Positions 19,309 through 27,451 of a DNA stretch of 64,000 nt are shown piece after piece; the first letter of the stretch is position 1; each line of letters starts with the position of its first letter. Origin of the DNA: a virus (lineage: Duplodnaviria; Caudoviricetes). The translations under genes were made by a program, and so were the position numbers. The DNA is taken from the IMG/VR virus record IMGVR_UViG_2907202186_000003, positions 64,001 to 128,000 of that record. The stretch is one strand, 5' to 3'. Below the pieces are notes generated by a model that saw nothing but the letters and a program-made list of their open reading frames with translations, made no database searches and was not told the DNA's origin.

Positions 19309-19401
19309 TTCAATATCACCTCTTTGTTTTGTTAGTTAAATTATACCATATGATTTTATATTATGTCTATATTTATTTTGTTAAATATAAAGGAATAAAC
19401 A

Positions 19402-20037
19402 TCATCCTTTATATTCTGTATCGCTATTCAAAATAGGATCGAAATATTTTTCCTCGGCTCGTTTACGAGCTTTTATAGCATCTTCCTTTTCGGAAAAATA
19501 CCCTAGAGATATTTGTTTCCCCTTAAATCCAATGTGTGCCGTCCATTTTTGACGGGATTCATTCCATCGTACACCCTTGTGTCCACTTTTATTGCCTTTA
19601 TGGAGCTTTGCCTTCAAAGCGGTTTTCCTCGTCCCATCCACACGGTCAGTTTTTTCATGCTCTCTTGCACCTATATCACGTTTTTCCTCTCTATTACACC
19701 CACAACTCTTATAATACCCAGCCCGCAGGCTGGCCCCGAGAACATATATAACTTCCCCACACTTGCAACGACATTCCCAAAGCCTTGTTCCGTTTGCCCC
19801 TCTTTTGTCGCTTAGTCGGATAACCTTCAAATCACCAAAATCCATGTCAGACAAGTCTTTCATTCTTGATGTGGTCCTATGGCTGCCATATTCCAATTCA
19901 GCGTCTTTTCGCGCTTGTACGGCGTCCTCGACATCAGTGAAATAGCCTAAATATTTTCGTTTTTTATTTACAAATATATAAGCACGATACTTGCCTTTGC
20001 GGCTGTCATAACTAACGTCTTTGTGATCATCTATCAT
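19402..20037 (-). CDS. AP2-domain DNA-binding protein (two AP2 domains, CxC..C motif)
   Basis: GV.W....KW.A.I...GK...LG.F....A..AR..AE motif twice; no clear HNH. Confidence 0.8.
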   Translation of the reverse strand: MIDDHKDVSYDSRKGKYRAYIFVNKKRKYLGYFTDVEDAVQARKDAELEYGSHRTTSRMKDLSDMDFGDLKVIRLSDKRGANGTRLWECRCKCGEVIYVLGASLRAGYYKSCGCNREEKRDIGAREHEKTDRVDGTRKTALKAKLHKGNKSGHKGVRWNESRQKWTAHIGFKGKQISLGYFSEKEDAIKARKRAEEKYFDPILNSDTEYKG

Positions 20038-20246
20038 TTTCCTACCTCAAATCGGCTTGCGAACCAAAGCGGAGTTAAATTACCTGTCCGCCCCTTGATT
20101 ACAGCATCTGGCCGTGAAAACCGCTTTTCCTTACCGCGGTAAGATGGATTCAACATCGCCTTAGCTGTCTTACTTACATTTTGCTGAGTGGTACCGATAT
20201 GTTCAGCAACCCACTCAGCTCCAACGTATTCAAGGGGCGGTGTTAC
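20034..20246 (-). pseudogene. HTH (AlpA/Aca-like) reading frame lacking a canonical start
   Basis: YVGAEWVAEHIGTTQQNVSKTAK...FSRPDA...PLW; no ATG/GTG/TTG upstream of the HTH in frame; overlaps the upstream stop at GTAA. Confidence 0.6.
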
Positions 20247-20497
20247 TTTACCAGTGTCACGCCTATTGGATTATACCAGTCACACATTTCTGACTCATCA
20301 GTGATTTCTTCGTACTCATCATAAACATCCCACACCAGAATATATTCGTTATTTTCTGCATCAACAGCGGTTGCTTTGTAGTGGGGGCGTTCGCCGGAAA
20401 CTCCATCAATATATGGGTCCTGTGTGGTCTTCAAGGTTTTCCCTTCAAAATCAATCACCGTCGAGTTAAACTCGTTCAGATCGCTAAAAGTTTTCAC
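20243..20497 (-). CDS. Small acidic protein (Acr-like candidate)
   Basis: GTG start after AAGGAGG; 84 aa, D/E rich. Confidence 0.65.
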   Translation of the reverse strand: MKTFSDLNEFNSTVIDFEGKTLKTTQDPYIDGVSGERPHYKATAVDAENNEYILVWDVYDEYEEITDESEMCDWYNPIGVTLVK

Positions 20498-20511
20498 TAA
20501 ATTTTTCCTCC

Positions 20512-20540
20512 TTGACATCATATTTAATATGATTTAATTT
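20512..20540 (+). promoter_or_regulatory. Promoter with embedded palindromic operator
   Basis: TTGACA at 20512; ATCATATT-T-AATATGAT at 20517-20533; AT-rich -10 candidates. Confidence 0.55.
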
Positions 20541-20552
20541 AAAAATGTAAGT

Positions 20553-20584
20553 GTCGCACCCCGTGCGAGTGCGTGGATTGAAAT
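20553..20584 (+). CRISPR. Solitary type I-C CRISPR repeat unit (not an array)
   Basis: GTCGCACCCCGTGCGAGTGCGTGGATTGAAAT, 32 nt, with I-C hallmark ends GTCGC and GCGTGGATTGAAAT. Confidence 0.85.
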
Positions 20585-20606
20585 ATTCTTATAGTATTTC
20601 AGCAGG

Positions 20607-20627
20607 AGGCCCTTTACGGGGCCTTTT
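20607..20627 (+). terminator. Intrinsic terminator
   Basis: AGGCCC-TTTACG-GGGCCT followed by TTT. Confidence 0.7.
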
Positions 20628-20657
20628 GTGTTACCATCCCGATGATGCCCTCTTAAT

Positions 20658-21059
20658 TTAAAATAGTTGCGCAATCACGAGAGCGTCCTTTATTACAATC
20701 TCTCCGTGATCAGGATCGTCATGGCGTCCCAGGCGCTTACTGGCGATTATGTAACAATGATCGGTACCAAAAATTTGGTCGCGCGCCTTTTCAGCTGCGA
20801 AGGAAGAATATTCGTAAGTCTGGCTGATTGACATGTCCCAGGCGGATGTACCGTTAAGAAGTTCCATCTCCTCGTATTCCTCTGTCCCGTATTTAGGGAA
20901 CTCCCTTTCATCTTCGCGATCAGCGTTATGGCGGCTGTATTCGCATTCCTCACCGATCGCGCGTTCCTTGTTTTCAAAACGAAGTCCGATAAAATAGAAT
21001 TCATTCTCATTGGCGACGTAGATTTCTTTAGCCTCCGCGTACATTTCTGCGACTGTCAT
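20658..21059 (-). CDS. Acidic 133-aa protein (Acr-like candidate)
   Basis: Start MTVAEM after GGAGG; own promoter. Confidence 0.7.
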   Translation of the reverse strand: MTVAEMYAEAKEIYVANENEFYFIGLRFENKERAIGEECEYSRHNADREDEREFPKYGTEEYEEMELLNGTSAWDMSISQTYEYSSFAAEKARDQIFGTDHCYIIASKRLGRHDDPDHGEIVIKDALVIAQLF

Positions 21060-21108
21060 CTTAATTCCTCCTTCATATATTTTTCCGTGATTCCTTGTTG
21101 TTGGTTTT

Positions 21109-21141
21109 ATTATATCACACAAGGTTGTGCTACACAACCTT
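21109..21141 (-). promoter_or_regulatory. Promoter with inverted-repeat operator over the -35
   Basis: TTGTGT-17-TATAAT with extended TG; AAGGTTGTG-3-CACAACCTT at 21121-21141. Confidence 0.7.
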
Positions 21142-21272
21142 TTCTTGAAAATATTATAATTTCCATACACAAATAACTCCAAGCAACAAAACTAACTCGC
21201 TTGGAGTTTGATAAAATTAATCTTTCATTAAGAAAGACAACCCCGAAAATAAGATTGTCTTTGCAATATAAA

Positions 21273-27286: not shown

Positions 27287-27451
27287 AATATTCTCTCCTT
27301 TTATTAAAGATTTTACTTAGTGTTCAAATATACAATGTTACTAATTGTACCATTGTATATTTGTCTTGCCACCTAACCGCTCAATGTCAGCGGTTAACGC
27401 TCTAGGCTTAAGGCTCAATCCCGATATGTCGGGAACCGCCTAGACGGTTTA

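Follow-up and report, generated by a model that had tools for sequence, protein, structure and literature searches.

Cracr RNAs are viral crRNA-like regulatory RNAs, and type I-C examples are among them (Liu et al., bioRxiv 10.1101/2024.10.29.618823). They join a repeat-like element to a short spacer-like part in a copy of the build of the host regulators CreR and CreA, and are predicted to be loaded with Cas proteins and to silence the cas promoter. The published criterion for a Cracr is that at least 9 PAM-proximal bases are common to its spacer-like part and the spacer part of a host CreR or CreA (bioRxiv 10.1101/2024.10.29.618823). CreR-type regulators themselves have been described for several type I subtypes (bioRxiv 10.1101/2023.03.10.532045). 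Host CreR/CreA genes (bioRxiv 10.1101/2023.03.10.532045), and with them the type I-C units of Paenibacillus described below, consist of a promoter, one repeat-like element with an 11-nt handle, a tail of 17-22 nt and a terminator hairpin. The host CreR units are located within the I-C cas loci, with a TTC-flanked target close by, and the 5' side of their repeats is usually more degenerate.

A further group of closely related elements are solitary CRISPR repeats. A catalogue published in 2023 contains 2103 of them on viral sequences (Camara-Wilpert et al., Nature 2023, PMC10651486). RacrIC1, one of the described elements, inhibits type I-C and is co-transcribed downstream of acrIC5 (PMC10651486). 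Units of the RacrIC1 type are solitary I-C repeats in intergenic DNA of prophages, with a promoter within 250 bp, no cas genes nearby and small acidic genes as neighbours. Very many of the solitary repeats in its supplement belong to type I-C, and about 90% of the catalogued cases have the cognate system in their host (PMC10651486); the exact repeats of the two units described below were not found in the part of the supplement that was searched.

Here we analyse a stretch of 64,000 nucleotides of viral DNA (IMG/VR record IMGVR_UViG_2907202186_000003, positions 64,001 to 128,000; hereafter the window), which carries a solitary type I-C repeat. Like Cracrs, the unit is phage-encoded, consists of a repeat-like and a short spacer-like part on the pattern of host CreR/CreA, and would be expected to load Cas proteins and silence a cas promoter. 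Unlike Cracrs, it is single instead of arrayed and its tail pairs with its own handle; in register, it has fewer than 9 PAM-proximal bases in common with a host CreR, and its sole good match (15/17) is shifted by 4 nt and flanked by TTA. The features of the RacrIC1 type named above are present, the promoter as a prediction with a weak -10, but the unit has a predicted promoter and terminator of its own, runs antisense to its neighbours, adjoins no known acr gene and resides in a host without the cognate system. It has the same parts and the same length as the host CreR units; in contrast to these, it is prophage-borne and nearly intact in its repeat, and a TTC-flanked target close by was looked for and not found. 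Viral and plasmid mini-arrays are also said to be CRISPR-derived elements on mobile DNA without cas genes. They reportedly have at least two repeats and a full-length spacer aimed at rivals, whereas the window unit combines a single repeat with a tail of 22 nt.

Our preferred reading of the unit is a crRNA-like RNA gene of the phage that would be directed against the I-C systems of other Paenibacillus hosts. That it is an RNA anti-CRISPR of one kind or the other, Cracr-like or Racr-like, is probable. Phage counter-defence by such RNAs has already been published, and the window unit is a new example, not a new principle. New are the set of host CreR genes of the genus, a syntenic pair of phage units with compensatory changes, and a near-match to a host regulatory site with the wrong PAM. 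Small RNAs that inhibit type I-C would be useful as switches, given that this CRISPR type is one of the most widespread and serves as a compact tool for genome editing.

Architecture of the repeat unit

An initial annotation, based on the letters alone, had described a promoter, a short leader, a 32-nt I-C repeat, a 22-nt tail and a terminator hairpin, all antisense to the flanking genes. Reading the sequence anew recovered each of these parts in place (Table 1). Together they fill most of a 160-nt gap between two genes, both of which are on the opposite strand.

Table 1. Features of the repeat unit and its neighbourhood (positions in the window)
Feature	Position	Strand	Remarks
Predicted -35 box	20512..20517	+	perfect consensus hexamer; abuts ribosome binding site of the minus-strand 84-aa gene (p85)
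-10-like hexamer	20535..20540	+	weak, 3/6 consensus; 12 nt 5' of repeat
Solitary 32-nt type I-C CRISPR repeat	20553..20584	+	unique in genome; 31/32 to genus arrays; folding
Tail (pseudo-spacer), 22 nt	20585..20606	+	handle/tail hairpin; likeness to CreR site
Intrinsic terminator hairpin and U-run	20602..20632	+	folding and sequence
p85, 84-aa acidic protein	20243..20497	-	divergent from unit; adjoins unit in P. azoreducens too
p78, conserved frame of 63-78 aa	20034..20270	-	overlaps end of p85; no start codon of its own
p130, 133-aa acidic protein	20658..21059	-	upstream of unit on minus strand
HNH/AP2-type homing endonuclease gene	19402..20037	-	at end of GC-richer island; syntenic in L075, L078, L080

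The promoter is a prediction. The -35 box is perfect, the gap to the -10 is 17 nt and the repeat follows after a further 12 nt, but the -10 is poor and a consensus scanner, for which it fell below threshold, made no call. From this promoter, transcription should start about 5-6 nt 5' of the repeat. The same scanner was silent on the terminator. Folding does give one: a GC-rich 12-bp stem (20602-20613 with 20618-20629; -19 kcal/mol, z = -3.8) is followed by a U-rich run, which is present on the plus strand only. The predicted 87-nt transcript has an overall folding z of -3.6.

The canonical repeat stem of 7 bp with a 5-nt loop (20555-20561 paired with 20567-20573) retains 6 of its 7 pairs. The one stem mismatch of the initial annotation is a C.A opposition at repeat position 16, which is also the sole difference from the array repeats that agree at 31/32. 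By minimum energy the free repeat folds into a 6-bp hairpin that is shifted 1 nt 5' at its start and ends 5 nt before the base of the canonical stem; natural repeats and other phage units, that of P. azoreducens included, adopt the canonical fold in the same calculations. The biochemistry of Cas5d is established. On this basis the Cas5 cut is predicted to fall between 20573 and 20574, and the 11-nt handle would be 20574-20584. Bases 20593-20601 of the tail pair with 20579-20587, that is, with the 3' half of the handle and tail nt 1-3.

As the initial annotation had also stated, the repeat is single and the window contains no cas genes. No second copy was detected in the window at up to 3 mismatches (0/100 shuffles match), nor in the whole 6.6-Mb genome even at 8 mismatches. 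About one spacer length 3' of the repeat, where a mini-array would continue, there is neither a second repeat nor repeat-like sequence, and the terminator starts 18-22 nt past the repeat. The locus is therefore a known repeat in intergenic DNA of a mobile element with no other or partial repeat and no cas gene nearby, which is the definition of a solitary repeat unit. Between 20450 and 20700 no Rfam family matched even at E values up to 1.

Prophage setting

The window belongs to an integrated prophage, as seen from terminase, portal, exonuclease V/helicase and integrase genes. The genome that carries it is assigned to Paenibacillus, in part from matches to phages of P. larvae. The lysogen genome (6.6 Mb, 99.99% completeness, about 48% GC) contains no Cas1, Cas5 or Cas8c. 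The initial annotation had proposed to look in the host for a I-C locus and for repeat identity; the lysogen has no such locus, and the closest array repeats, at 31/32, are those of three other species of the genus.

The unit lies in an island of elevated GC content (19400-21200, i.e. 19.4-21.2 kb), with 40-48% GC as compared to 30-36% in the surrounding early region. The island comprises the two acidic genes, the repeat unit, the startless frame and the HNH/AP2 endonuclease, and it looks like a module moved between Paenibacillus phages. p85 was considered as a known anti-CRISPR protein and rejected: it belongs to no Pfam or PHROG family, its relatives are all hypothetical, and its structure model (all-beta, pLDDT 80) has no fold match in the PDB. 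The model of p130 is unusable (pLDDT 37).

The p78 frame is 57-82% identical in five relatives and matches no Pfam family. It overlaps the last 9 codons of p85, and none of the start codons ATG, GTG and TTG is available to it in the window (homologous loci L075-L078 and L080). In six of six homologues the last three residues of the upstream frame are identical and its stop codon falls on the same bases, which points to a programmed -1 shift or an unusual initiation that would join both proteins. Elsewhere in the early region of the prophage, a Pistol ribozyme (Rfam RF02679) is found at 27367-27434 on the minus strand, with 38.8 bits against a gathering score of 34.5 and over the full model length.

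Type I-C systems and CreR-like genes in Paenibacillus

The genus was searched with one representative genome per species. Arrays with near-identical repeats are present in 46 of 115 other Paenibacillus species (about 40%), and Cas8c in 43 of 115. The window repeat is 31/32 identical to arrays of three species (G022, G106, G115), all adjoining Cas8c loci, and 30/32 identical to arrays of G018 and G115. By its length of 32 nt, its conserved 11-nt handle and its near-identity to cas-adjacent array repeats it is a type I-C repeat. Derivation of the unit from a CRISPR leader was rejected, since the 45 nt 5' of the repeat resemble 86 array leaders no better than shuffles do (36/200 reach the observed score). 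Other single repeats in the genus (G003, G024, G070, G107, G110) belong to degenerate arrays or mini-arrays and differ in build from the window unit.

Two sites in the lysogen's own genome (C13:29197-29222 and C1:3001564-3001589) are matched at 25/26 bases by I-C spacers of two other loci, L086 (species G084) and L042 (species G010). Both fall outside the window and are probably part of other mobile elements.

When 40 Paenibacillus I-C loci were scanned for isolated handle motifs, 20 proved to contain a solitary repeat, often degenerate on its 5' side, with a tail of 17-20 nt and a terminator behind it (L035, L037, L038, L040-L042, L047, L050, L051, L053, L055, L056, L058-L061, L065, L067, L068, L070). 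A partial target is located 20-140 nt away in 20/20, always flanked by TTC and matched at 12-15 of 15 counted positions. We regard these 20 units as putative CreR-like, cas-regulating RNA genes. At L047 of species G018, the sole locus whose genes were mapped, the unit lies between cas3 and cas5. The sequence of the terminator stem is common to many of the CreR-like genes across species.

The window unit has the build of these 20 host units, namely repeat, short tail and terminator, and carries it outside any CRISPR-Cas locus and on a mobile element, which is the architecture described for Cracrs. P. durus (G017), whose Cas5 is the nearest relative of that of G018 at 98% identity, has an entirely different pair of CreR and target. 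The turnover of such pairs is therefore fast, and a single genome from each species samples them thinly. The locus offers a natural pair of homologous phage units, and in its genus a CreR-like regulator accompanies about half of the I-C loci; the arms race in which host regulator, cas promoter and the phage mimic take part can therefore be followed in the sequences themselves.

A homologous unit in Paenibacillus azoreducens

Relatives of p85 occur in about 20 loci. Besides the window, the only one with a I-C repeat upstream is on a prophage contig of P. azoreducens (G007; L078, L100). In both prophages the distance from the unit to the end of the DNA block they share is 252 nt, and the promoter spacing is identical as well (-35, 17 nt, -10, 12 nt, repeat). 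The P. azoreducens promoter matches consensus at 5/6 in the -35 and 5/6 in the -10, and is followed by the repeat, a tail and a long terminator. The P. azoreducens p85 is 53% identical to its counterpart in the window, and most of the flanking DNA cannot be aligned. That the unit was kept in spite of this divergence indicates that it was either retained by selection or exchanged as a module.

Between the two repeats there are 7 differences, 4 of which make up two compensatory stem pairs (4-20 and 6-18). Both RNAs fold into three hairpins, consisting of the repeat, of the last six bases of the handle with the tail, and of the terminator. The tails differ in sequence and yet both pair with these six bases; moreover, this hairpin covaries, as the terminal base of the handle is U in one unit and G in the other and its partner has changed to match (U-A to G-C). 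When the pattern of the handle/tail hairpin was searched for, IMG/VR yielded a single additional case, a weak one (L114), and the genus yielded no more.

P. azoreducens carries a I-C locus of its own. The tail of its unit matches neither that locus nor any other target in the loci searched, and 0/12 of its spacers match the contig bearing the unit.

Search for a guide target

Targets were sought as TTC-flanked sites with at least 13/15 matches; the same method recovered 20/20 of the host CreR targets. For the window tail there was no such site in the 40 I-C loci of the genus or in the lysogen genome, at one genome per species, and the initial annotation's proposal of a TTC-flanked pseudo-spacer match in the host genome thus found no counterpart. 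The P. azoreducens tail has none in the 40 genus loci either. In 80 metagenomic I-C loci, neither tail exceeds 14/17 in any register. Across the 40 genus loci and the lysogen genome, the window tail has no in-register counterpart to the Cracr criterion of 9 PAM-proximal bases in common with a host CreR or CreA spacer part, which would entail a PAM-flanked target at a cas or creT promoter.

With the PAM ignored, the site targeted by the CreR of G018 is matched at 15/17 by nt 1-17 of the window tail, in guide sense and with 10 contiguous matches from nt 1. When tails were shuffled and compared with the 20 target neighbourhoods, 2 of 2000 reached this value. The tail sits 4 nt upstream of the register of the host CreR, and the PAM in this position reads TTA. 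The I-C PAMs that have been listed are TTC, then CTC, TCC, TTT or CTT (bioRxiv 10.1101/2021.10.18.464778), and TTA is absent from the list. A site so close to the tail, but beside the wrong PAM, in one species is a hint of escape, either of the promoter or of the PAM. The two tail positions that mismatch the G018 site are those that form pairs in the handle/tail hairpin, so the tail may be shaped by its self-structure and not by a target.

Three further candidates were set aside. The best match in the own genome (19/22, contig C13) has no TTC PAM. A 22/25 match with TTC in species G059 lies inside an ORF of 679 aa in a species without Cas8c and was judged to be due to chance. Five near-identical IMG/VR contigs (L183, L184, L187, L190, L193) contain TTC and, directly after it, all of tail nt 1-17 without a mismatch, within a Gam-like gene of a phage whose sole relative in the database is a Dorea phage. 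This match was also ascribed to chance, because five sequence families were matched and 5/16 would be expected to fit both free positions.

Proposed function and alternatives

The CreR-like build, the homologous prophage unit with its compensatory changes and the better fold of the plus strand support a small-RNA gene under selection. We infer that the unit would be transcribed, processed by Cas5, loaded with Cas proteins and inhibitory. It would be a phage small-RNA gene with its own promoter and one I-C repeat, in which a tail of 17-22 nt stands where an array has a 34-nt spacer and a terminator hairpin forms a cap at the 3' end. If the host has a I-C system, cleavage by Cas5 would fall 11 nt short of the end of the repeat, and the RNA so released would assemble with Cas5, a few Cas7 subunits and Cas8c to give a short Cascade unable to license Cas3. 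Such a complex would draw Cas proteins away from real crRNAs. Where the host offers a matching site with a usable PAM in the promoter of cas5-cas8c-cas7, the complex could in addition sit there and shut the cas operon, as in the Cracr mode, which includes competition.

For this last mode, in which the RNA would be guide and competitor at once in imitation of CreR, our confidence is tentative and stays short of even. The weak -10, the shifted hairpin of the free repeat, the lysogen without I-C and the pairing between tail and handle speak against it. Because no PAM-flanked target was found in the loci and genomes searched, we do not file the unit as a proven Cracr. The initial annotation had offered two readings, a decoy that sequesters Cascade subunits and a short guide that represses a host promoter. 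Both are known modes of viral solitary repeats, and the comparative data favour a selected small-RNA gene in general; the guide reading is left with an imperfect match, 15/17 with TTA for TTC.

A pure decoy in the Racr mode would bind Cas5, and perhaps Cas7 and Cas8c, through repeat and handle without any DNA target. The handle/tail hairpin and the terminator would make it a stable dead-end substrate or product that ties up the sole enzyme for pre-crRNA processing, and the likeness to a cas promoter would be vestigial or due to chance. This is the alternative that survives best, if a somewhat unlikely one. The want of a TTC-flanked target in genus loci, lysogen genome and metagenomic loci agrees with it, as does the covariation by which two differing tails keep their pairing with the handle. 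This pairing amounts to -5.7 and -7.3 kcal/mol in the two phage units against 0 to -3.3 kcal/mol in 16/16 folded host CreR tails. Moreover, most catalogued viral solitary repeats are read as Racrs, with RacrIC1 as an inhibitor of I-C (PMC10651486). However, about 12% of 1889 natural spacers fold equally well with the handle, and the hairpin energy alone is therefore unexceptional. The match to the CreR site is equalled in 0.1% of shuffles and in 0/362 non-cognate comparisons between host tails and targets, where the maximum is 13 (cognate pairs 12-16). Finally, the build is that of the host regulators and not that of RacrIC1, which rides on an acr mRNA (PMC10651486).

An inert relic would be a fragment of a host I-C locus or a collapsed viral mini-array, acquired by recombination and still undecayed, with flanks that resemble promoter and terminator by chance. 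The lysogen without any I-C system, the weak -10 and the broken stem pair would fit such an origin, as would the presence of the unit in just two of about 20 loci with p85 homologues and the finding that 0/1889 sampled genus spacers match the window prophage. We nevertheless consider it improbable. Promoter spacing, repeat, hairpins and terminator have all been retained beside a protein of 53% identity, with two compensatory changes in the stem; the terminator is strong and has plus-strand polarity only, and no degenerate second repeat follows the unit.

Action from the minus strand was also considered. Here read-through from the upstream gene or the p85 leader would carry the complement of the 32-nt repeat, pair with the repeats of host pre-crRNA and block Cas5; alternatively, the palindromes would be cis-regulatory elements of p85-p78. 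The neighbouring genes are all encoded on the minus strand, a terminator for that strand is missing from 21059 to 20497, and the unit overlaps the region expected to hold the p85 promoter or operator. Against this, the plus strand folds better in both units owing to G.U pairs (-32.9 vs -27.0 kcal/mol in the window and -42.7 vs -35.9 kcal/mol in P. azoreducens), the geometry of the promoter and the polarity of the terminator are both conserved for the plus strand, and the upstream regions of other p85 homologues are quite different and without such palindromes. This reading is very unlikely. Least credible is a sensor at the DNA level, in which host CreR-Cascade would bind phage DNA at the tail and gate the neighbouring genes: TTC does stand at tail positions 2-4, and the 14 nt that follow bear a likeness to the CreR target of G018, host-register PAM included, but agreement between the CreR tail of G018 and the phage site is limited to about 10/15 counted positions, inside the non-cognate range, and the P. 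azoreducens unit has no parallel.

Within the preferred reading as an RNA anti-CRISPR, the window and P. azoreducens units may form a 'handle-locked' subclass. Cas5 would bind the RNA while the hairpin blocks the nucleation of Cas7, which may yield a trap for the processing enzyme that is neither crRNA competitor nor guide. Such a subclass, or a minus-strand anti-repeat against host pre-crRNA, has little probability in our estimate; if true, either would be a mechanism undescribed for RNA anti-CRISPRs.

Further solitary units and upstream elements

More solitary repeats with terminators occur in IMG/VR contigs. In Paenibacillus species G016 (L079, contig G016:C1), which has no Cas8c, a solitary I-C-like repeat with one change in the handle lies on the minus strand about 960 nt beyond a p130 homologue. 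Its promoter (5/6 and 5/6, 17-nt spacer) is followed by a 30-nt leader, and the repeat by a 15-nt tail and a strong terminator.

In several p85 homologues that have no repeat unit (L090, L091, L096-L099), a short hairpin-like element is conserved about 20-40 nt ahead of the start codon, at about 1460-1490 of the respective locus. It is located in the 5' leader just before the ribosome binding site, and the boxes upstream of it are conserved as well.
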